Of a DNA stretch of 64,000 nucleotides, positions 1 to 44,793 are shown piece after piece. Below the pieces are notes generated by a model. It worked only from the letters and a program-made list of their open reading frames with translations. It had not been told where the DNA came from and ran no database searches. Source of the stretch: a virus (taxonomy: Duplodnaviria > Heunggongvirae > Uroviricota > Caudoviricetes). The stretch spans positions 32,001 through 96,000 of the IMG/VR virus record IMGVR_UViG_2718218135_000001, one strand, 5' to 3'. Within the stretch, counting starts at the first letter, position 1; each line of letters opens with the position of its first letter. Made by a program: the position numbers and the translations under genes.

Positions 1-72
1 AAAAACGACTCGTGATACCACCCAAAAACAGACACGCTCAGAAGCGCTCCCGTTGCGTTATATTGGACATCT

Positions 73-86
73 AAACAAGTTGTTTT
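73..86. promoter_or_regulatory. AAACAA-N2-TTGTTT operator-like palindrome (copy 1)
   Basis: aaacaagttgtttt; same palindrome recurs at least 10 times in the window; here it precedes the A+C-rich non-coding tract. Confidence 0.45.
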
Positions 87-799
87 CAGACACAAGAAAA
101 CAAGCTAACCACACCCACAGGAAACCCAGAGACGCCATTACCCACATTCCCAAAAACAACCAACCTCTTTATGGCAGGCTACTGAAAAGACCCACCTCTT
201 CTTCCCAGGCTACCGGACAACCAACCTAACTTTCACAGGCAACTCGAAACATTCATACATGCGATACCCACTACACGCCATTCCCCAAACAGCGAATAAA
301 CACCAGAACCACTGAAACTCTAACGAAGCCTGTTACCGCAAGGACTCCCTCAATCCCCAAAGACACGAAACAGAACATTCGCGGGGAAACGCCATTACTC
401 AATACACAAATAACCACAAAAGCCTTTCACGCTCTCAAGACAAACAACTCAAATACAATAACGAAAGGAATCGCCCACCTGCCATTACTCCATACACAGA
501 GAAGAACAATCACCAAAACAACGAGAACAACCCTGACGAAAACACAGAGAAGAACCACCTCAAGAAGAACGAAACCACATATGCCGGTAGAAAGAACAAA
601 CCACCCATTTCACCCACAGGAATAGTCGCCGTATTGAGCGTTATCAGAGAGAAGGTTTATGCCCACATAAGAGAGAAAATTCGTGGGAGGTATAAGTGGG
701 AAGGGAAGGAGGGGTATCGCCACTTTCTTCGTATAAATTCAAGCCATAGTTTTCATCCCCCGTAACGTCCCTATCCACCCCTTCGGTCAGCCTTCGGGC

Positions 800-1000
800 C
801 ATCCAGGGAAAAGGCCATGTCCCTTTTCAGAAACGGGAGCGTCGCCGCAGGGAAAAGGCTGGAGGTTTTCAGGGAAACGGTGGGAATCCCGCTATACGAA
901 CCGGGAAAAGGCTGGCTGCCGGTCGGGAAACGGGTACATCCCGGTACAGAGCGAGGGACGACTGCGGGAGCGGTGCGGGAAATCTTCGGGAATGCGCCTT
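800..1000. repeat. iteron-like direct repeats
   Basis: repeated units AGGGAAAAGGC...TTTTCAG(A/G)GAAACGG at about 806, 850, 871, 903, 924, 977; the three overlapping ORFs here translate to low-complexity sequence. Confidence 0.5.
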
Positions 1001-1273
1001 GCTCTTCGCTCGCCTGAAAATCGCGAGGGAGTGTCGTTCCCTCTCGTGCAGCTGCTGAACTCCATTCTGCCAGACCATCCTCGGGTCTCAAGCGATTTCA
1101 GTAGGTTTTCGGGGAGAAGAAAATTCTGCCCACCAGCCCTGCGGCGCGCGTAGAGCAGAATATCGTAAATACTGGTTCCCGTGTCGTTCCCGGATATTCA
1201 CTGCCCAGCCTGGCTTTCACGACATAAAATCCTTTTTCGCCTTTGTCTTATTGCGACAATAACACCAACAAGT

Positions 1274-1287
1274 AAACAACATGTTTA
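1274..1287. promoter_or_regulatory. AAACAA-N2-TTGTTT operator-like palindrome
   Basis: aaacaacatgttta, 32 bp upstream of ATG 1319. Confidence 0.5.
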
Positions 1288-1318
1288 GACGTTATATAAA
1301 CGAAGTGAGGATGAAGAG

Positions 1319-1537
1319 ATGATTAAGATGCCTGTGACGGTTGAGGTGTGGGGCGTGGATTCCCTGGCTGAGTGTCTGGATGCAGTGGGGCCGGAGTTGT
1401 ACCGCAAGTTGTGGTCGTTCGTCCCGGCAGAAGGGGAATCGCCCAAAGGGAAGGATATCTGGCACCTGCTTAGTGAAGATGAAAAGCGGGAGCTGGTGGA
1501 CGCGGTACACAGCGAGTTCCCGGACGACGAAGATTAA
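1319..1537 (+). CDS. hypothetical small acidic protein (72 aa)
   Basis: ORF with GAGGA RBS and upstream operator palindrome. Confidence 0.5.
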   Translation: MIKMPVTVEVWGVDSLAECLDAVGPELYRKLWSFVPAEGESPKGKDIWHLLSEDEKRELVDAVHSEFPDDED

Positions 1538-1650
1538 GAGTGAGACCACCAGCACGGTGGCTTTTGTCGCTATTAACCTCCGGGGCAGCGCAGCACCGTA
1601 ACGATATACTTTGTGGCCGTTTTCTTACTGGTATTGTTTACGCAATTCAG

Positions 1651-1666
1651 AAAACAACATGTTTAA
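1651..1666. promoter_or_regulatory. AAACAA-N2-TTGTTT operator-like palindrome
   Basis: aaaacaacatgtttaa inside a ~60-bp promoter cassette that is duplicated at 2100-2158. Confidence 0.5.
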
Positions 1667-1676
1667 GGATTGCTTT

Positions 1677-2006
1677 ATGTTTGCAAATATCGACATCAAC
1701 CAAATCAAGAAAATGACTCAAAAAGAGTTTGACCAGTTTTATGAGTTAGAAGGTTGGTCTTCCACGCTGATCAATTCGCGCTGGGTGCTTGAGCTGATGA
1801 CTCGTGATGATGCTCCTGCTTTGATTATTTGCGACATGGGTGAAGATGCTGACTTTATGGATATGAGCGAATTTTGTGTGGACACATACAACCGCAGCCA
1901 GAAGTACTACTTCACATGCGATAGCGAGAATGACGTGATTTCTAAGCTCTATCTTCACCTTGTCCAGCATTGGGACGTGCAGGAATTCCTTGAGTTATTC
2001 GCGTAA
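1677..2006 (+). CDS. hypothetical protein (109 aa)
   Basis: in-frame ATG with AAGGA RBS 8 nt upstream; the longer track ORF start at 1611 lies inside the operator. Confidence 0.5.
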   Translation: MFANIDINQIKKMTQKEFDQFYELEGWSSTLINSRWVLELMTRDDAPALIICDMGEDADFMDMSEFCVDTYNRSQKYYFTCDSENDVISKLYLHLVQHWDVQEFLELFA

Positions 2007-2016
2007 GCCCAACCAA

Positions 2017-2037
2017 AGCCAGCACCGCCTGCTGGCT
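2017..2037 (+). terminator. hairpin after CDS (weak terminator candidate)
   Basis: agccagc-N7-gctggct stem, no clear T tract. Confidence 0.35.
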
Positions 2038-2140
2038 TAACTTCTCTGTAGCCGCAGGGAAGAACCACCTTTAGATAATTCATGTGCCTGAGCAATATGC
2101 TTTGTAGCCGTTTTTACACTGGTATTATTTACGCCATTGA

Positions 2141-2157
2141 GAAAACAATTTGTTTAC
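2141..2157. promoter_or_regulatory. AAACAA-N2-TTGTTT operator-like palindrome
   Basis: gaaaacaatttgtttac, 10 bp upstream of ATG 2167. Confidence 0.5.
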
Positions 2158-2166
2158 GGAGTGGTG

Positions 2167-2478
2167 ATGAATACTTCATTGGTGCTGGGTCTTGCTGAAG
2201 GCCAGGAGAGAAAAGAAAAACCAACCTTAATGGGGCATCTCACATTGCTGGATATCGTAGCGAATGGGACTTCTATCCGTCTGTTTCGTGAAAAAGCCAT
2301 TACCTTCGACGCGGGCAATTTTACGCGCTATGTGATGGTAGTTCGTCGCCAGCGTGGAAGAGGGTGGATGTCGGTCCAGAAAATGTGGCCAGAGGACCAG
2401 CTTGAACTGGCGCTGATGGAAGCCAACCGTGTCGCCCAACAAGAGATCCAACGAGCGTCTGTTCAGGCGGTAGCTTAA
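2167..2478 (+). CDS. hypothetical protein (103 aa)
   Basis: ATG with GGAGTGG RBS; followed by intrinsic terminator. Confidence 0.5.
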   Translation: MNTSLVLGLAEGQERKEKPTLMGHLTLLDIVANGTSIRLFREKAITFDAGNFTRYVMVVRRQRGRGWMSVQKMWPEDQLELALMEANRVAQQEIQRASVQAVA

Positions 2479-2513
2479 ACATGTGCAAGCAGTAGTTAGT
2501 CGAATGTACGACA

Positions 2514-2540
2514 GCCCCGCCAATCCTTCGGGGCTTTTTT
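2514..2540 (+). terminator. rho-independent terminator
   Basis: gccccg-loop-cggggc stem followed by TTTTTT. Confidence 0.7.
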
Positions 2541-2544
2541 GTAT

Positions 2545-2560
2545 TGTAAGTACTTACTTA
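2545..2560. promoter_or_regulatory. TAAGTA-N-TACTTA palindromic box (second motif family)
   Basis: tgtaagtacttactta immediately after the terminator and 40 bp before gene 2600. Confidence 0.5.
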
Positions 2561-2599
2561 TGATAATAAAATTAAAAATTAAACACTAAGGAGAGTGAA

Positions 2600-2995
2600 A
2601 TGACCGTTAAACGCGAAAATCTGACCCTGGATATGTATTATGCATCAGAGACGGAAAATGGAGACAAAGTTGCAAAAATTACAATTGTGCTACGCGATAA
2701 TACCTCCGGCGAAGAAGTTCACACCAGTACCTTAACTCGCACCGGCGAGGCCACAAAGGGGAAATATTCGGTGCGTTACCAAAGCATCAGTAATGCTTCT
2801 GACCCTTTACTGATAAAACTGGAAACTCATTTCCGTGGCGCGGATCAGACGTTGTTTGAAAATTTGATGAAAAAGGTCGATACGGTTTATACATCGAGTT
2901 TAAATACCAATAGTACCTGGATGGGACAACACGGTCTGCGAATAATCTCCGGCGAAAAGATCGACACCATTGTCCCTGAAAGCGTATTCGCTTAA
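2600..2995 (+). CDS. hypothetical protein (131 aa)
   Basis: strong RBS AAGGAGAG; terminator downstream. Confidence 0.55.
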   Translation: MTVKRENLTLDMYYASETENGDKVAKITIVLRDNTSGEEVHTSTLTRTGEATKGKYSVRYQSISNASDPLLIKLETHFRGADQTLFENLMKKVDTVYTSSLNTNSTWMGQHGLRIISGEKIDTIVPESVFA

Positions 2996-3007
2996 TCCTC
3001 TTTGAAT

Positions 3008-3032
3008 GGCGCGTAAACCGCGCCATTTTCTT
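3008..3032 (+). terminator. rho-independent terminator
   Basis: ggcgcg-taaac-cgcgcc hairpin followed by ATTTTCTT. Confidence 0.6.
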
Positions 3033-3041
3033 ATGCCCGAT

Positions 3042-3054
3042 AACAATTTGTTTT
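3042..3054. promoter_or_regulatory. AAACAA-N2-TTGTTT operator-like palindrome (half-degenerate)
   Basis: aacaatttgtttt upstream of gene 3113. Confidence 0.4.
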
Positions 3055-3112
3055 CTGCCTTATCTGATTTGTGAAAATGATTTCACTGAAGCAACTTAAT
3101 AAGGAAACCATC

Positions 3113-3487
3113 ATGGGACTTGATATCTATATCGAGACGCAGCCTAAAAACGATCTGAATAACGAGGCATCCAGAAAGCAGGTTGCTTACTTCCGTAAGT
3201 TCAATGCGCTCGTTGGGTGGATGGAGCGCAACGTAGGTGAAGTCGAAAATTGTGAGCTTTTAGAATTAACGATGAATGACATTTGTTTTCTGAAGGCTCA
3301 TTTGATGCACATAAACGAAAGTAATTGCGAAGAGTACTTGCCTACCCAGGAAGGTTTTTTCTTCGGCAGTCAGGAGTACGATGAAGGTTACTGGCATGAC
3401 GTGGATAAGCTGAAAAAACTTGTGGAAGACCTGATCAGGAACCACGACTTTCACAATAACAGACTGACGTTCCGTGCCTGGTGGTAA
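3113..3487 (+). CDS. hypothetical protein (124 aa)
   Basis: in-frame ATG with AAGGA RBS; the track ORF begins at GTG 3071. Confidence 0.5.
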   Translation: MGLDIYIETQPKNDLNNEASRKQVAYFRKFNALVGWMERNVGEVENCELLELTMNDICFLKAHLMHINESNCEEYLPTQEGFFFGSQEYDEGYWHDVDKLKKLVEDLIRNHDFHNNRLTFRAWW

Positions 3488-3489
3488 AT

Positions 3490-3633
3490 ATGGGCGATTT
3501 CAAGAAACGCCTGAAGGAAAGAGCCGAGATGGTCAGAAATCAAAACGCATCTTCTGTCATCAGATACGCAAGGCAGTTTAGTCGCAACAACAAATCAGTT
3601 GAGGAAAAGATCCTTAGCGCAATCGGGCGATAA
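3490..3633 (+). CDS. possible small basic protein (47 aa)
   Basis: ATG overlaps the upstream stop (TAAATATG); below the ORF-track length cutoff; hand-translated. Confidence 0.25.
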   Translation: MGDFKKRLKERAEMVRNQNASSVIRYARQFSRNNKSVEEKILSAIGR

Positions 3634-3638
3634 TTATT

Positions 3639-3662
3639 AAGGCCACCAGCAGTGGTGGCCTT
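3639..3662. terminator. 10-bp stem hairpin (terminator-like)
   Basis: aaggccacca-gcag-tggtggcctt perfect stem; no T tract. Confidence 0.35.
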
Positions 3663-3803
3663 AAATGACCATCCTGTTTCCCGCAGGCTAAAAACACCAA
3701 CCTCTTACCTCCAGGCAACCGACAAACCCACCTGTTCCCGTCCGGCTACCGCAACTTTCCACTTTGACGCCTTATTCGTACAACGATAATTAACACCAAC
3801 AAG

Positions 3804-3816
3804 AAAACAATTTGTT
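3804..3816. promoter_or_regulatory. AAACAA-N2-TTGTTT operator-like palindrome
   Basis: aaaacaatttgtt, 22 bp upstream of ATG 3838; flanking acaccaacaag element is shared with the 1260 copy. Confidence 0.5.
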
Positions 3817-3837
3817 ATTTACGATAAGGAATTAATC

Positions 3838-4320
3838 ATGAATTTTATCGCTACTGTAAACGCACCCGCACATGGCAATATCGCTGTAACGTTCTCTGAC
3901 ATTGAAAAACGAGTACTTGGTGCATGGCGCGACAATGAGACGGTAGAACTGTCAGCACAAGAAAAATGCATTATTGCACGCGACATCATTGGCAATCGTC
4001 GTTACTCGCGGGTATTTGAGAAAGCATATGTGGTAAATTCTGGATTCGGAACGTTCGTCTTTCCGGTGCGCTCCGGGCGATTCTGCCAGTCCAAGCTGAT
4101 TGAGTTCGCTACGCAGATTTCTGTCTGGATTAAAACTCAATCGTCGTTCAAATTTTCCGACGATGAAGCAGTATCGCAGGGGATGCGGATCGCCAACAAT
4201 GCAATAAAATGCAAAAACATTACGTATGCCGCTGGCGTTGACACATGGAAACTGTTTTGCGCTAACTTTATGCTGAATGTATACGCAAGCAACCGCATCC
4301 ACATCCTTGATGGCGTGTAA
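3838..4320 (+). CDS. hypothetical protein (160 aa)
   Basis: ORF with AAGGA RBS. Confidence 0.55.
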   Translation: MNFIATVNAPAHGNIAVTFSDIEKRVLGAWRDNETVELSAQEKCIIARDIIGNRRYSRVFEKAYVVNSGFGTFVFPVRSGRFCQSKLIEFATQISVWIKTQSSFKFSDDEAVSQGMRIANNAIKCKNITYAAGVDTWKLFCANFMLNVYASNRIHILDGV

Positions 4321-4450: not shown

Positions 4451-4913
4451 GTCGCCTTTATGTAGAAAACTGAGCGGGAGAAACCCGGAATCGCGCCAGA
4501 AATTGCATAGCGGCGCTGGGTAGTTGCTGGTGGGCTTTCAGCCCCTGGGCCATCCAGATAGCTTTCGCTATGTGATTATGTGAATCCGTGGGTAAATCAC
4601 TGTAAGCGCGTACACGTTGCCCAACGTGGCAATCATATGCGAGCGGATACAAAACAACACAAAGAGCCGATCCGCGCCGACAAATAAACGCGGATCACAT
4701 AGCAAGACTAAAAGCCAATGATTAACCATACTCTATAGCGCAATATAACGCGTTTTAAGCGCGTTAATGTGTTAAGTAATGGGTATGTACTGACAAGGAT
4801 ATAAAAGCGCGTCTATGGCGTTATTTTGGTGCTTATTTTTATGTTGTTGGAGTGAGTTAAAGACAATAAAAAACGCGCCATCATTGGCGCGTTATGGTGG
4901 GAGTATTGGAAAC

Positions 4914-4950
4914 GAAAAAAGCGCCCATAGTGGGCGCTCGATTTTATTTG
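4914..4950. terminator. bidirectional intrinsic terminator
   Basis: A-run, palindrome gcgcccatagtgggcgc, then T-rich tract; identical palindrome recurs at 5194-5212. Confidence 0.55.
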
Positions 4951-5174
4951 TGTAAACTGATTTCAAATCCTATTTCTACAAACGCTTTCAACATTAAAAA
5001 GATATCAGCGTCATTCACGTCTGCTTTTTTTCGCTCCTGGTCGTTCAATAAGTCAATTTTGCGCGTTGTTTCATTTATAAACTCGACTGCGCGCCCAGCG
5101 ATCCCAGCGATCCCAGCGATGCGATTAACATAATATTCATTATGGACGTTAACGCCAGCGATAAGAACAAACAT
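4944..5174 (-). CDS. small protein (76 aa) with IAG x3 repeat
   Basis: AAGGAG RBS; contains the 9-bp tandem repeat. Confidence 0.5.
   Translation of the reverse strand: MFVLIAGVNVHNEYYVNRIAGIAGIAGRAVEFINETTRKIDLLNDQERKKADVNDADIFLMLKAFVEIGFEISLHK
5094..5120. repeat. 9-bp tandem repeat x3 (cccagcgat)
   Basis: direct reading; encodes IAGIAGIAG on the minus strand. Confidence 0.8.
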
Positions 5175-6189: not shown

Positions 6190-6714
6190 TTAAAACGGTA
6201 AAATCCGTTCGACCCAATCGAAGAGAACTATCGTTCGTCCGCGCTCGCCAACTCTCATTGCGACCTGACAGGCATCAACGCCTAACGAACACCCCTCAAT
6301 TTCACGGCCATCCGCCATGTAGACCCTTATAGACTTTTGCGCCTCATGAGCTTGACGACAAATTTTGAAGAAATCGCGGCGAGATGGCCGATTGTCCACA
6401 TAGTCAGGGTGTACAGTGAGCCTACCTGTAAACATCTTGTCCACTTCGACAGGTGTAATTGTTTCTATGGTGCTAACTCGCTCCAATGGAAGACGAACAC
6501 GATGTTCTTTACTTCCTATAACGGGAGAAAGATCTAGCTTATTGCGTGCGGTAAGCAGACCAATAACGTAAAGACAAAACGTCTGACCATCATCGATCGT
6601 GACCCTTACAGGTATATTCCTTGCCCGTAGGAACTGCAAACTAAACTCCACGTTAGAGTAGTCGCGGGGCCAGACCTCTGCTGGGATGCCGTATGTAATG
6701 TCTGTGATCGTCAT
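6190..6714 (-). CDS. hypothetical protein (174 aa), translationally coupled to upstream gene
   Basis: start overlaps upstream stop (TAATG). Confidence 0.55.
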   Translation of the reverse strand: MTITDITYGIPAEVWPRDYSNVEFSLQFLRARNIPVRVTIDDGQTFCLYVIGLLTARNKLDLSPVIGSKEHRVRLPLERVSTIETITPVEVDKMFTGRLTVHPDYVDNRPSRRDFFKICRQAHEAQKSIRVYMADGREIEGCSLGVDACQVAMRVGERGRTIVLFDWVERILPF

Positions 6715-13647: not shown

Positions 13648-13662
13648 AAAACAAATTGGTTA
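13648..13662. promoter_or_regulatory. degenerate AAACAA box
   Basis: aaaacaaattggtta. Confidence 0.35.
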
Positions 13663-13673
13663 GGCACAGAATT

Positions 13674-13687
13674 AAACAAGTTGTTTA
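13674..13687. promoter_or_regulatory. AAACAA-N2-TTGTTT operator-like palindrome
   Basis: aaacaagttgttta, 40 bp upstream of the TerS start, followed by hairpin gagcgca-agga-tgcgctc. Confidence 0.5.
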
Positions 13688-19602: not shown

Positions 19603-20037
19603 ATGAAACCAGCAAAAATTCGTTTATTGGAGCCTCAATTTTTGGGGTACACGGGGATTCTCTGCGGTATCAAGTTTGTAGACGGTATCTCAGTTGCTGA
19701 ACTGCCATTCGTCGATCAGCAGCGGATTTGTGCTTCCATGCGTGCGACTACCGTTGAAGGTAAAAATGTATCTCCTTCTGCCGCGTACAGTAGCCGCAAT
19801 AACTTGACTGCGGAAGACATTGTCGAGACGCCAGCCCCGGATATTGTGCCAATGAAACGTGGTGCGGCTGAAACAAAGCCCAAACCGGTACAGCGCTTTA
19901 CTCGTGAAGAACTGGAGTCGATTGCGGACTGTGAAGGTATTGCGGGTCTTCGTCAGATCGGCAACCAAATTGGCGTGAAAGCCAAAGGCATCGTTGAAAT
20001 GATCGAGGGTATCCTGAAAGCACAGGGCGGTGAGTAA
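19603..20037 (+). CDS. hypothetical virion protein
   Basis: ATG with GAGAAG RBS; track ORF begins at GTG 19591. Confidence 0.45.
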   Translation: MKPAKIRLLEPQFLGYTGILCGIKFVDGISVAELPFVDQQRICASMRATTVEGKNVSPSAAYSSRNNLTAEDIVETPAPDIVPMKRGAAETKPKPVQRFTREELESIADCEGIAGLRQIGNQIGVKAKGIVEMIEGILKAQGGE

Positions 20038-30835: not shown

Positions 30836-33800
30836 ATGGAACAGTTCAAGAAGAAAAAGTTACCGCTGTTTATTGCCGGTGCGGGTGGTAAAAAAAGTAG
30901 CAAAAGCTCCAGCCGTACACCGGTTGAAGCCGACGATACCGTAAATTCTCGTGCAATGGCCGCTATCCTCGATCTTCTTGGGGAAGGGGTAATTGGCGGC
31001 TTAGTAAATGGCGCAAGATCTATTTTTATCGACGATCTGCCGATTGTAAATGAAGACGGTTCCTCCAACTTCAGCGGAATCACATGGGATTTTCGCGACG
31101 GTTCACAAGACCAGACTCCAATGTCTGGCTTTGATTTCGTTGAAACGCCTAAATCCGTCAATATCCAGTTAAAAAAAACGCATTATGTAACGGTTTCAAT
31201 CGATAACGATGAAGCTGATCGGGTTCGTGTCATCATGAAGTTTCCTTCTTTGCGAAGCATAGATAAAAAAACTGGTGACACGAACGGTACGACTGTTGAG
31301 TACAAGTTCCAGATAGCAAATGGCGACTCAACATTTGTAGATGTGGTCGCGGAAGGTGAAAAAAGCGTTGGCATTAAGCTAACAGCAAAGAAGACCGGCG
31401 TTTATTACCGTAGCTATGAGCTGAAGCTGCCTAAGCCTGGACGAGCATACAAGGTTCGTGTAGTCCGTATTACCGATGATAACAGTAGCCAGTATCTCTA
31501 TAACGATACATGGGTGGATTCAATCGGGGAAATTGTCGATACACCGATGAACTATCCAAACTCTGTTTTGGTTGGATTGAAGGTAAACTCTGAGCAATTC
31601 GGCAGCACCATGCCATCTCGCTCTTATCTGGTGCGTGGCCTAAAAATTCGAGTACCTTCAAACTATAACGAGTCCAGTAACACTTACGCTGGGGTATGGG
31701 ATGGCACTTTTAAGCTGTTGTCTTCTTCGAACCCCGCGTGGATTCTCTTTGATTTGCTGACCAATGCTCGATATGGCCTTGGTCAGTATGTGTCGGAATC
31801 TATGATTGACCTTGGCCAGTTGTACCAGATTGGTCGATATTGTGACGAAGAGGTCGATGATGGCTTTGGTGGCAAAGAGAAACGCTTTGCAATCAATACG
31901 CAGATCACCAGTCGACAGGACGCATACCGGCTAATTCAGGATATTGCTGGAGCATTCCGCGGCATGGTGTTTTGGGCTGGTGGGATGGTTAACATCATGC
32001 AGGATAGCCCATCAGATCCGGTAATGATGTTTACCAACTCTAACGTCAAAGATGGATTGTTTACCTATAAAGGTTCTGCGCGTAAAGATCGCCCATCCGT
32101 TGCGCTCGTAACCTACAACAACAAGGAGGACGGTTATAAGCAAAACATCGAGTACGTTGAAGATCAGGACGCAATGCGCCGTTATGGTGAGCGTAAGACA
32201 GAAGTCGTAGCATTTGGCTGTACAAGCCGAGGGCAGGCTCACCGAGTTGGTTTGTGGCTTTTGTATACCGCCAGAATGGAGTCGGATGTAATTACATTTA
32301 CTGCCGGCTTAGACGCGTCATTTTTGATGCCTGGTGAAACCGTTCTGATTCAGAACAAATATCGCGCAGGCAAACGTAACTCAGGTCGAATTGTGGCGTT
32401 TACCAAAAACAGCGTCACACTCGATGCGCCTGTGTCGTTAGCCAAAGGCGGCTGCTTTATTCGAATACTGAATCAGGAAGGCAAAATCGTTGAACGCGAT
32501 GCTCTTGAAACTGGCGAAAATATAACAAAAGTTACGTTTTCAAAAGCCCTGTCGTCAGCGGAAACGCCTGTTTTGAACGGTGTCTGGACAATTACAGAAC
32601 CAGATCTCGAACCTATGCGCGTTCGCATCGTTAACATCGCTCAGGGGGAAACGTCGGGTAGCTTTGACATCACCGCTGTTGAAAACAATCCGTCTAAATA
32701 TGAGGCGATCGACAATGGTGCAACGCTTATCCCGCAGAATACGACGGTATTGGACCCGACTTACTCCAAGCCGTCTAATTTGCAAATCACTGAAGGGACT
32801 TATCTCTCAAGCCCGGGCAACCTGTCAGTAAAACTGACTGCAACATGGGAAGGGAAATCTCCAGAGTATTGGATCAGTTGGCGACGTTCTGATGCAAACA
32901 ATGTATCGAACTGGCAATCGACGCGTGTAACCGAAGAGCAATACGAAATCGTTAATGTCGCGGAGAATGGACGCTACGACTTCCAACTGTATGCGGTTTC
33001 ATTCAACGGTAAAAAAACAGAAATTATCAGCACCGTCTACAAAGTTCAGGGGACGATGACGCCGCCGGATGCACCGACTGCACTGACGGCCGTGGGCGAC
33101 TACCGCAACGTGATTCTGAATTGGGTTAACCCGGACTCAATCGACCTCGATCACATCAACGTGTATGCATCCCGGACCAACAACCTGGACACTGCAAAAC
33201 TAATTGCCGAAGCAGCCAGTACCACCTTTACGCACGCAGGTCTTGGAGATAGCGAAACTTGGTTCTATTGGGTTCGTGCAGCAAACAAACGCGGAATGTT
33301 GAGCCAGCCGAACTCCAATTTGGGCACTGAGGCGATGACGAAAGATGTTCTGTCTTTCCTGACCGGGAAGATCACTTCTTCGGAATTGGGGCAGGAACTG
33401 CTTGAGGAAATCGACACCAAAGCCTCGCAGGAAGCCGTCGACGCAATCAACAAGCAGATGGAAGAAAGCCTGAAAAGCCTTGATGACAAATTTACTGAGA
33501 CCGATCAACGGATTGAAGAAGCCCAAAACGTTCTTAGAACGGAAGTTTCTAATACTGCCAGCAAGGTGGAAGAGGCTCTTAAGGAGGTTGAAAACTCAAA
33601 TGCCGCATTAATTCAGTTGAAGGAAACTGTTTCAGAGCAGGACAAGGTCGTTGCTGGAGCGGTTGAGGCCGCGAATGCAGCACTGGACAATTCATCGGCT
33701 TTAGTTGCGGAGGAACGTGAGGCACGAGTCGAAGGCGACTTGGCGAACGCGAAAGAAATCGAGGCAATGAAGTCAACTGTAGATAGCAGTTTGGCCACCA

Positions 33801-41849: not shown

Positions 41850-41863
41850 AAAACAAGTTGTTT
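41850..41863. promoter_or_regulatory. AAACAA-N2-TTGTTT operator-like palindrome
   Basis: aaaacaagttgttt, 36 bp upstream of parA-like ATG. Confidence 0.5.
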
Positions 41864-44777: not shown

Positions 44778-44793
44778 GAAAACAAATTGTTTA
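44778..44793. promoter_or_regulatory. AAACAA-N2-TTGTTT operator-like palindrome
   Basis: gaaaacaaattgttta, 19 bp upstream of helicase ATG. Confidence 0.5.

Follow-up and report, generated by a model that had tools for sequence, protein, structure and literature searches.

The 64,000 nucleotides analysed here (positions 32,001 to 96,000 of the IMG/VR virus record IMGVR_UViG_2718218135_000001, hereafter the window) come from a phage-plasmid of the SSU5/pHCM2 type, as the nucleotide matches of its first 1300 bases reveal. Near its left end lies a gene-free tract rich in A and C on the plus strand, which is the subject of this report. The tract is a genuine feature, under strong selection and widespread; neither the literature that we searched nor Rfam describes it. 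We tentatively read it as an untranslated and unstructured zone on which the host Rho protein would load, combined with an attenuator and gated by an operator that recurs throughout the genome. This reading draws on the composition of the tract, its non-coding status, its lack of structure, the selection for A and C, a plus-strand hairpin, the absence of intrinsic terminators and the agreement with the criteria for rut (Rho utilization) sites; from these we infer transcription of the plus strand, the action of Rho and the identity of what is regulated.

Composition and non-coding status of the tract

On the plus strand, positions 87-640 are 72% A+C against a window mean of 51% (standard deviation, sd, 4.4), and over 95-620 the bases stand at A 40.3%, C 32.9%, G 13.3% and T 13.5% (A+C 73.2%), compared with 27/23/25/24 in the whole window. 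In 200-nt sliding windows over the 64 kb the mean A+C is 0.508 (sd 0.044) and the tract reaches the maximum of 0.765. The only other stretch above 0.66, at 56113-56328, reads as the end of a coding region, and no other non-coding tract within the 64 kb comes near this bias. Base skew is strong over 1-600, with a GC skew of -0.36 to -0.50 and an AT skew of +0.36 to +0.63, which bears out the strand asymmetry first noticed; the U content is 8-19% across about 1.2 kb. The initial annotation had placed a tract of some 600 bp at 95-700. The bias stands, but the limits do not: the A+C bias stops at about 640, positions 640-720 are G-rich and C-poor, and the upstream limit lies outside the window, since a 99.4% identical relative (L002) has about 270 nt more of conserved non-coding DNA before position 1.

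That neither strand holds a credible open reading frame (ORF), as also proposed at the outset, agrees with our results: the longest are of 58 aa (plus) and 48 aa (minus), and no frame is conserved. A stop-free plus-strand frame at 316-765 exists because T is rare. We rejected it as a hidden coding region, given that it is interrupted by stops in relatives and shows no codon periodicity (22, 24 and 27 of 48 variable columns by codon position). No covariance model of Rfam 15 matched at E <= 1, either in window positions 1-1400 or in the full gaps of L002 and of L116, a member of a distant sister family described below.

Conservation and selection

Homologous tracts remain 66-71% A+C even at 70% sequence identity. 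We grouped 60 full-length copies into 12 clusters at 93% identity, the lowest pairwise identity being 61%, and among these clusters the 184 invariant columns are 80% A+C (51% A, 30% C), the intermediate columns 68% and the most variable 56%. Because the bias sits at the invariant columns and fades at the variable ones, it is, to judge from these alignments, upheld by purifying selection on one strand and not by mutation pressure. A functionless tract, either a decayed gene or a spacer reflecting mutation bias, would agree with the composition-normalised substitution spectrum, which is ordinary and like that of the neighbouring non-coding DNA. We nevertheless find this explanation scarcely credible in view of so many invariant columns among clusters down to 61% identity, a bias that is strongest at conserved columns and nearly gone at variable ones, the lack of a conserved frame and, finally, an architecture preserved in a family beyond the reach of blastn.

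This sister family is represented by the Klebsiella pneumoniae AR_0097 plasmid (rep_cluster_2469); it goes undetected by blastn and its marker protein is 33% identical. The syntenic gap opens with TTTCTATAAG-N5-GTTGATC..CACTTTCCC and continues with about 820 nt of A+C-rich sequence that contains two copies of the operator palindrome (one of them mid-tract), CAGGCA three times at a period of about 30 nt, three TGCCATC units and an A-rich, T-poor stretch. It then changes abruptly to G-rich, C-poor sequence with CGTAGAAATTCAAGC, followed by CGGGAAACGG repeats and the promoter of the first small gene. The k-mers common to both families amount to just a mild excess of AGAA, GAA, CCACC and ACCCA, with no specific signature. 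Sufficient upstream DNA was available for 71 IMG/VR relatives. In 64 of these, A+C reaches at least 0.69 over a 500-nt window, at a distance of 1.7-4.7 kb (in most cases 3-4.7 kb) ahead of the marker gene. All 64, four loci of the distant family among them, show the bias on the same strand.

Strand and RNA structure

Four repeat families and the unique conserved blocks all put A or C on the same strand. Since a protein that reads duplex DNA needs no such one-strand arrangement, the sequence evidence favours a single-strand function over the binding of duplex DNA, and the tract most likely works on the plus strand as RNA; this strand is probably transcribed. Structure prediction, which had been suggested for the putative RNA, yields an unfolded molecule with one conserved hairpin. 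Over 635 nt the plus-strand RNA has a folding energy of -101 kcal/mol, no lower than shuffled sequences would have (z = -0.67), and the RNAalifold consensus of the 12 clusters contains 63 pairs over 866 columns, the covariation term being near 0. The hairpin, at 693-730, is the only conserved local structure. Its alifold energy is -9.6 kcal/mol on the plus strand versus -0.4 on the minus strand, and in 29 distinct sequences its 11 pairs have 85% of cells paired on the plus strand (181 Watson-Crick, 91 G-U) as opposed to 61% on the minus strand. At two of the pairs A-T and G-C replace each other. This is modest evidence for a function of the plus strand. The tail of the hairpin is U-rich in about half of the clusters and not in the window's version, and the G-rich repeats further on (760-1010) have no conserved RNA structure on either strand.

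A G+U-rich RNA from the minus strand, which would start at a promoter-like site at 1091->1064 or come from the minus-strand gene of SSU5 and pHCM2 and would end near 47->20, seems to us very improbable. The site in question resembles a promoter with an extended -10 (TTGAGA-16-TGgCAGAAT), is directed into the gap and kept in six of nine aligned relatives, there are terminator-like sites on the minus strand at 47->34 and 833->818, and SSU5, pHCM2 and Enterobacter relatives have a small minus-strand ORF at the place of 1091-1064, just right of the gap. However, the terminator stem at 47->34 is lost in the Klebsiella-type relatives, shuffled sequences fold as well as the minus strand does (z = +0.84), this strand does not sustain the conserved hairpin, and there is no minus-strand gene downstream to be served. 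The genes flanking the tract are nearly all on the plus strand, as are almost all genes of the SSU5 genome.

A possible Rho-loading zone

Rho loads on untranslated, unfolded RNA that is rich in C and poor in G, at rut sites of about 80 nt that have no particular sequence. In the mechanism that we tentatively prefer, RNA polymerase would enter the tract from the upstream plus-strand operon, which has no intrinsic terminator, or possibly also from a weak operator-controlled promoter at 59-85. The transcript, being untranslated, unfolded, C-rich, G-poor and U-poor, would present host Rho with an unusually long rut zone, and from 693-730 onward, where the sequence is G-rich and bears a hairpin, Rho would overtake the polymerase. 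In this way the upstream operon of replication genes would be insulated from the small operator-controlled genes downstream, or transcription between them attenuated, and a miniature of the same module would terminate a gene at 3639-3816.

The RhoTermPredict rule defines a candidate RUT site as a 78-nt window with C/G > 1 and C residues every 11-13 nt (PMC6407284), the top tier being C/G > 2 with the same spacing. From 79 to 585 the 78-nt windows have C/G of 1.6-3.1, and the longest plus-strand runs in the 64 kb with %C-%G >= 15 in every such window are 66-385, 368-553 and 3639-3816. Of the 779 top-tier windows on the plus strand, 174 fall in 1-600, and the longest top-tier clusters are at 141-382, 3643-3827 and 466-618. 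The computable features of a rut site (C/G, C spacing, unstructured RNA, no conserved ORF) are all present. A match to the GGN8YG pause consensus lies within the hairpin at 708-719, at most 150 nt downstream of the rut zone. From the stop codon of the upstream gene to the first small gene we detected no plus-strand intrinsic terminator in L002 or in the distant L116, and several of the downstream small genes do end in hairpin-plus-U terminators.

The second C-over-G region, at 3639-3816, is placed as expected for a factor-dependent terminator: it comes after a stop codon and a hairpin that lacks a U-run (3643-3662), and the next promoter and operator (3764-3817) come after it. This small copy is retained even in Yersinia pestis pMT1. 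The similarity of 3665-3760 to the tract had been recognised initially, and we can attribute it to a recurring 23-nt pattern, CCACCTCTT-N5-CAGGCTACC, which at <=3 mismatches matches the window at 161, 192, 3698 and 3728 only, with 0.01 matches expected.

Among characterised systems, the tract appears by analogy to work most like a Rho-dependent terminator or attenuator, such as lambda tR1 with rutA and rutB or the long Rho-attenuated leaders of rho, rpoS and mgtA. Like these, it is untranslated and unstructured, has more C than G with regular C spacing, leads, in the window's version, into a putative pause or hairpin zone and lies where an operon has no intrinsic terminator. It differs in being 7-10 times longer than a rut site needs, in its invariant repeat families, in having one or two copies of an operator and in the conservation of its sequence over deep divergence. 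On the most economical reading the tract belongs to a known kind of element, as an extreme variant that carries motifs of its own. The conserved repeats are not needed for a plain rut site, and the 31-nt and GCCATTAC units (Table 1) probably bind a phage or host factor that modulates the element.

Several observations weigh against an assignment to Rho. The 550-850 nt that are kept, with their invariant motifs, go far beyond the approximately 80 nt needed for termination, and the RUT rule is permissive, with 7135 plus-strand windows in the 64 kb passing its basic form. The pause consensus is enriched in the G-rich zone (12 matches versus 5.0 expected) in the window's version only, being not significant in the Klebsiella type or in the distant family, and for this reason we rejected an array of elemental pauses there. 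The 31/30-bp and 22/31/22-bp spacings of two of the repeat families are whole helical turns, a hint of proteins bound to duplex DNA. In the distant family the hairpin at 693-730 is weak or missing, sigma-70 hexamers ahead of position 73 match poorly, and the conserved promoter-like site on the minus strand points into the gap. Finally, transcription of the plus strand is something that we infer.

The notion of a CA-rich RNA starting near 90, at the operator, survives in part. In its favour are the position of the operator, the one-strand A/C and the plus-strand hairpin, and the weak sigma-70 hexamers speak against it. The tract is, however, not simply an RNA downstream of the operator, because the A+C bias begins about 300 nt before the palindrome, which moreover lies mid-tract in the distant family. 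If loading of Rho is indeed what the tract is for, it would be an unusually clear natural case of a sequence selected to be unfolded and C-rich, and would provide a handle on how such elements silence lytic genes in the plasmid state.

A possible decoy RNA

An alternative that we regard as unlikely is a discrete, stable and long RNA without coding function. It would measure about 0.65-0.9 kb, be unfolded, poor in U and capped by the 3' hairpin, arise upon relief of the operator and serve as a decoy for a protein binding single-stranded RNA. The partner, either a host protein (Rho, Hfq or ribosomal protein S1) or a phage protein, would bind to the repeated GCCAUUAC and 31-nt units. Much of the evidence given above also suits a decoy: selection for A/C confined to one strand, an unstructured plus strand with low U content over a long distance, repeated motifs far over chance, an operator in front and a plus-strand hairpin at the 3' end. 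The tract is, in addition, present in all of the isolated phages of the family that our search found. Sponge RNAs are well known, with CsrB and CsrC titrating CsrA, and CrcZ titrating Hfq/Crc by means of A-rich CA motifs. The tract shares with them a several-hundred-nt, A-rich non-coding stretch with repeated short single-stranded motifs.

The likeness does not extend to the binding motifs. Counts of AANAANAA, (ARN)n, ANGGA and GGA are within the expectation from dinucleotide shuffles, so we rejected Hfq/Crc and CsrA sponges, and neither GCCAUUAC nor CCACCUCUU-N5-CAGGCUACCG matches a known binding site. A GcvB sponge of the AgvB or SroC type was likewise rejected, the best duplex with R1 (-22.8 kcal/mol) being equalled or beaten by 196 of 200 shuffles. 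Two further points tell against a stable decoy: an untranslated C-rich transcript should itself be shortened by Rho, and in the window's version the tail after the hairpin is not U-rich. The extension of the A+C bias upstream of the operator is also awkward for it.

Antisense roles fared no better. The tract has no extended complementarity to the rest of the window, where only chance-level matches of 10-12 nt occur, and GCCAUUAC as an antisense to start-codon regions (GUAAUGGC) fits a single gene start, at 20037. Type III antitoxin repeats of the ToxI type were rejected because such systems have near-identical tandem units of 34-40 nt immediately ahead of a toxin gene, whereas the three 31-nt units are just 70-73% alike and the next gene, which has no known family, is 1 kb away. 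The reverse complement of the 31-nt unit (CCGGTAGCCTG) may resemble the RfaH ops element GGCGGTAGnnTG, and CCACCUCUU the anti-Shine-Dalgarno sequence; the context supports neither.

One candidate partner is encoded in the window. On the minus strand at 6190-6714 there is a full-length FljA-type 'repressor of phase-1 flagellin' (PF03614, E = 6e-69), and the phage-plasmid may thus silence host flagellin. The tract and the fliC 5' untranslated region (UTR), the target of FljA-type proteins, have GGAAACCCA and ACCCAATAC in common, but their Smith-Waterman scores equal those of shuffles, and we rejected a mimic of this kind.

A possible DNA-level element

The remaining alternative, which we also consider doubtful, is that the 1.5-kb gap acts as DNA, either as a lytic origin or as another protein-binding array. 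In one variant, plus-strand transcription would pass the point, at about 640-700, where C>>G abruptly gives way to G>>C and would form an R-loop in 690-1000 that primes DNA synthesis. Several repeat families are packed into the 1.5 kb, two of them phased at whole helical turns (31/30 and 22/31/22 bp), the upstream block has GTTGAC/GTCAAC sites in either orientation, and the C-to-G switch with its G clusters is conserved in both families. The phage-plasmid family also has replication enzymes of its own: a DnaB-like helicase, a primase, Pol III alpha, a Pol I-type exonuclease and a ligase, besides two RNase H-like proteins. Moreover, the tract is unneeded for plasmid maintenance yet retained in functional phages.

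Nevertheless, one-strand selection for A+C would not be expected of duplex binding sites, and the customary marks of an origin are missing. There is no AT-rich unwinding stretch, the GC content never falling below 0.41. A DnaA-dependent origin was rejected, with one near DnaA box (8/9 match, 138-146), no cluster and no enrichment. A global origin signal was also rejected, since the cumulative GC skew of SSU5 has no V-shaped minimum at the tract. No initiator gene adjoins the tract, and its motifs are unrelated to the RepA iterons. R-loop-primed origins are known from ColE1 (RNA II) and from phage T4 (oriF and oriG). The gap resembles these in having a putative promoter and what would be a long untranslated transcript leading into a G-rich stretch, and the phage-plasmid encodes RNase H-like and Pol I-type functions. 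ColE1 RNA II, in contrast, is highly structured and controlled by an antisense RNA, whereas the 5' part of the tract is selected to be unstructured and no DNA unwinding element is seen.

We think it rather unlikely that the region is a new control module, either an unfolded A/C-rich RNA of about 0.7-0.9 kb in which the conserved repeats would capture and retain a machine that acts on single-stranded RNA (most plausibly Rho) or a lytic origin fired by an R-loop. It is the motifs beyond the needs of a rut site and the conserved programme of composition that leave room for something newer. Were one of the alternatives true, it would mean a new long RNA or a new type of origin. An RNA that holds Rho would be the RNA counterpart of protein Rho inhibitors like Psu of P4, and a novel RNA or R-loop origin would be a new non-coding control module distributed across hundreds of clinical plasmids of Enterobacteriaceae.

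Organization of the gap

In every relative examined this locus is free of genes over 1.4-1.6 kb, and the A+C-rich tract forms the core of the gap. Because a 1.5-kb gene-free conserved block is a large non-coding share for a phage, the gap very likely holds a central switch, be it for transcription insulation, for the decoying of a host factor or for lytic replication. Its parts, together with the operator sites and the second C-over-G region, are collected in Table 1. The ccattactc-type motifs first noticed near 395 and 481 proved to be GCCATTACTC at 391-400 and 481-490, and there are further copies at 134-143 and 277-286. Three to five units of this type occur in relatives, and the TGCCATC units stand in their place in the distant family. 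The last four G-rich repeats (848-924) are spaced 22/31/22, and the distant family has its CGGGAAACGG repeats here.

Table 1. Features of the gene-free gap and related sites; positions are those of the window.
Feature	Position	Strand	Remarks
Start of conserved gap	about 270 nt before the window, in L002		TTTCTATAAG-N5-GTTGATCGCCACTTTC
End of conserved upstream non-coding block	1-58	+	alignments A4, A6; L002 sequence
Weak -10-like TATATT (59-64), then palindrome (73-85)	59-85	+	
A+C-rich tract	87-640	+	non-coding, predicted unstructured, C/G 1.6-3.1
AAGAAAACAAG	94-104	+	degenerate second operator half-site
GCCATTAC-type unit, copy 1	134-143	+	
Three tandem 31/30-nt units	156-249	+	ACC(C/A)ACCTCTT-N5-CAGGCTACCG, also written ACCCACCTCTT-N5-CAGGCTACCG
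GCCATTAC-type unit, copy 2	277-286	+	GCCATTCCCC
GCCATTAC-type unit, copy 3	391-400	+	
GCCATTAC-type unit, copy 4	481-490	+	opens the most widely conserved third of the tract
Three 24-nt-period units	494-577	+	ACACAGAGAAGAAC..., A-rich, T-poor
Purine-rich zone	641-692	+	C>>G turning to G>>C; same switch in L116
G-rich block and hairpin	693-730	+	GGGAAGGAGGGG-UAU-CGCCACUUUCUUC, then GUAUAAAUUCAAGC
G-rich repeats	804, 848, 870, 901, 924 (804-945)		CAGGGAAA(A/C)GGCTGG; within the same conserved gap
Promoter-like TTGCGACAAT and palindrome AAACAACATGTTT	1251-1286	+	of the first small gene (1319-1537); end of gene-free gap
Second C>G region	3639-3816	+	with 2-3 of the 31-nt units (3667-3760)
Palindrome sites	73-85, 1274-1286, 1652-1664, 2143-2155, 3041-3053, 3805-3817, 13649-13661, 13674-13686, 41851-41863, 44780-44792, 62416-62428		

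A module TATAAG...ATCGCCACTTTC is found at both ends of the A+C-rich region, at 5770-5800 of L002 (corresponding to about -230 to -200 of the window) and at 691-727 of the window. Even the distant family keeps the upstream copy of the module (TTTCTATAAG-N5-GTTGATC) unchanged. We rejected the idea that TTTCTATAAG is a phage promoter used repeatedly, since the window does not reuse the motif.

The palindrome as a putative operator

The palindrome reported as an operator just before the tract is confirmed as AAACAAGTTGTTT at 73-85, a member of an over-represented family of sites. The 13-bp palindrome, AAACA-N3-TGTTT, has 15 sites in the window versus 3.6 expected. A distance of 12-35 nt separates it from the start codon at a ParA-like gene, the DnaB-like helicase gene, the gene preceding the large terminase and many small genes. 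In about ten plus-strand genes it lies between promoter-like hexamers and the ribosome-binding site, and the 73-85 site is placed likewise. This copy is invariant in 10-12 relatives, and the CACAAGAAAACAA module also comes after the palindrome in the distant family. Sites so distributed look like an operator used throughout the genome, or else like scattered centromere-like elements, to which some protein would bind. Dispersed operators of this sort are known from P1 (C1 operators) and RK2 (KorA and KorB sites), as are the centromeres of N15; in these, as here, one short palindrome is reused ahead of many operons, some with partition, replication and packaging genes. The likeness concerns the palindrome at 73-85, not the tract.

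Roughly six small genes, whose functions are not assigned by family (phrog_6757, 7645, 5125, 2473, 7971 and 1641), occupy window positions 1319-4320. Most have a promoter-like site and palindrome of their own, several also a terminator. Close relatives, pXJW9B263-1 among them, have IS26, IS1 and cargo genes instead of this stretch.

Phage-plasmid setting

Phage-plasmids of the SSU5/pHCM2 type belong to gut bacteria and occur frequently in clinical isolates of Escherichia, Klebsiella, Enterobacter, Salmonella and Citrobacter; their regulation is essentially unstudied. The literature that we searched contained no description of this region or of the 13-bp operator network, no transcript map and no transcriptome data for the family. 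With megablast, the first 1300 bases of the window matched 392 plasmid records, nearly all typed as non-mobilizable IncFIB, with E. coli pXJW9B263-1 the top match (99.4% identity), together with Salmonella phage SSU5 and the Escherichia phages Cyrano, PhiR41_1 and CMS-2020a. At higher sensitivity, blastn with positions 60-720 as the query found the tract in 833 plasmid records from Klebsiella, Escherichia, Enterobacter, Salmonella, Citrobacter, Cronobacter and Shigella, and in 12 phage records, several of which are Klebsiella phages.

In SSU5 the tract is at 90.7-91.4 kb, with repA 30 kb off and the terminase genes 12 kb further on. On both sides of repA lie about 20 RepA iterons of the CTCTCTACAGTGGTTAG type, with 21-bp spacing in arrays (8800-11300 of L013, or 58.8-61.3 kb of SSU5), a layout like that of P1 oriR/incA. 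We rejected the tract as a RepA iteron array, as those iterons flank repA at 59-61 kb and the motifs at 90.7 kb are others. Some maintained plasmids have no intact tract, with IS1 inserted in it in NZ_CP083480.1 and a deletion in Y. pestis pMT1, and it is hence dispensable for plasmid maintenance. The suggestion of a plasmid origin can consequently be set aside: different iterons lie 30 kb away, there is one near DnaA box and no AT-rich stretch, and maintained plasmids have the tract interrupted or deleted. The other initial suggestion, a leading region, fails as well; this is a phage-plasmid, 381 of the 392 related plasmid records are typed non-mobilizable, and the A+C strand cannot form the hairpins of single-strand promoters. 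A promoter of the Frpo or ssi type was rejected on the same ground, as this strand is almost without self-complementarity.

Two minor features of the window may be mentioned. A weak Rfam match to Hrs1, an Hfq-regulated small RNA, occurs on the plus strand at 4865-4931 (32 bits versus a gathering score of 56.4, E = 0.0026), directly before the ORF at 4894-5133. The Chi sequence GCTGGTGG has 19 copies window-wide versus 1.7 expected, in both orientations (for example at 1130-1137, 1546-1553 and, on the minus strand, 3643-3650). Several of these copies form the stems of intergenic hairpins, and the Chi in the hairpin at 3643 is reversed in SSU5 and pMT1.

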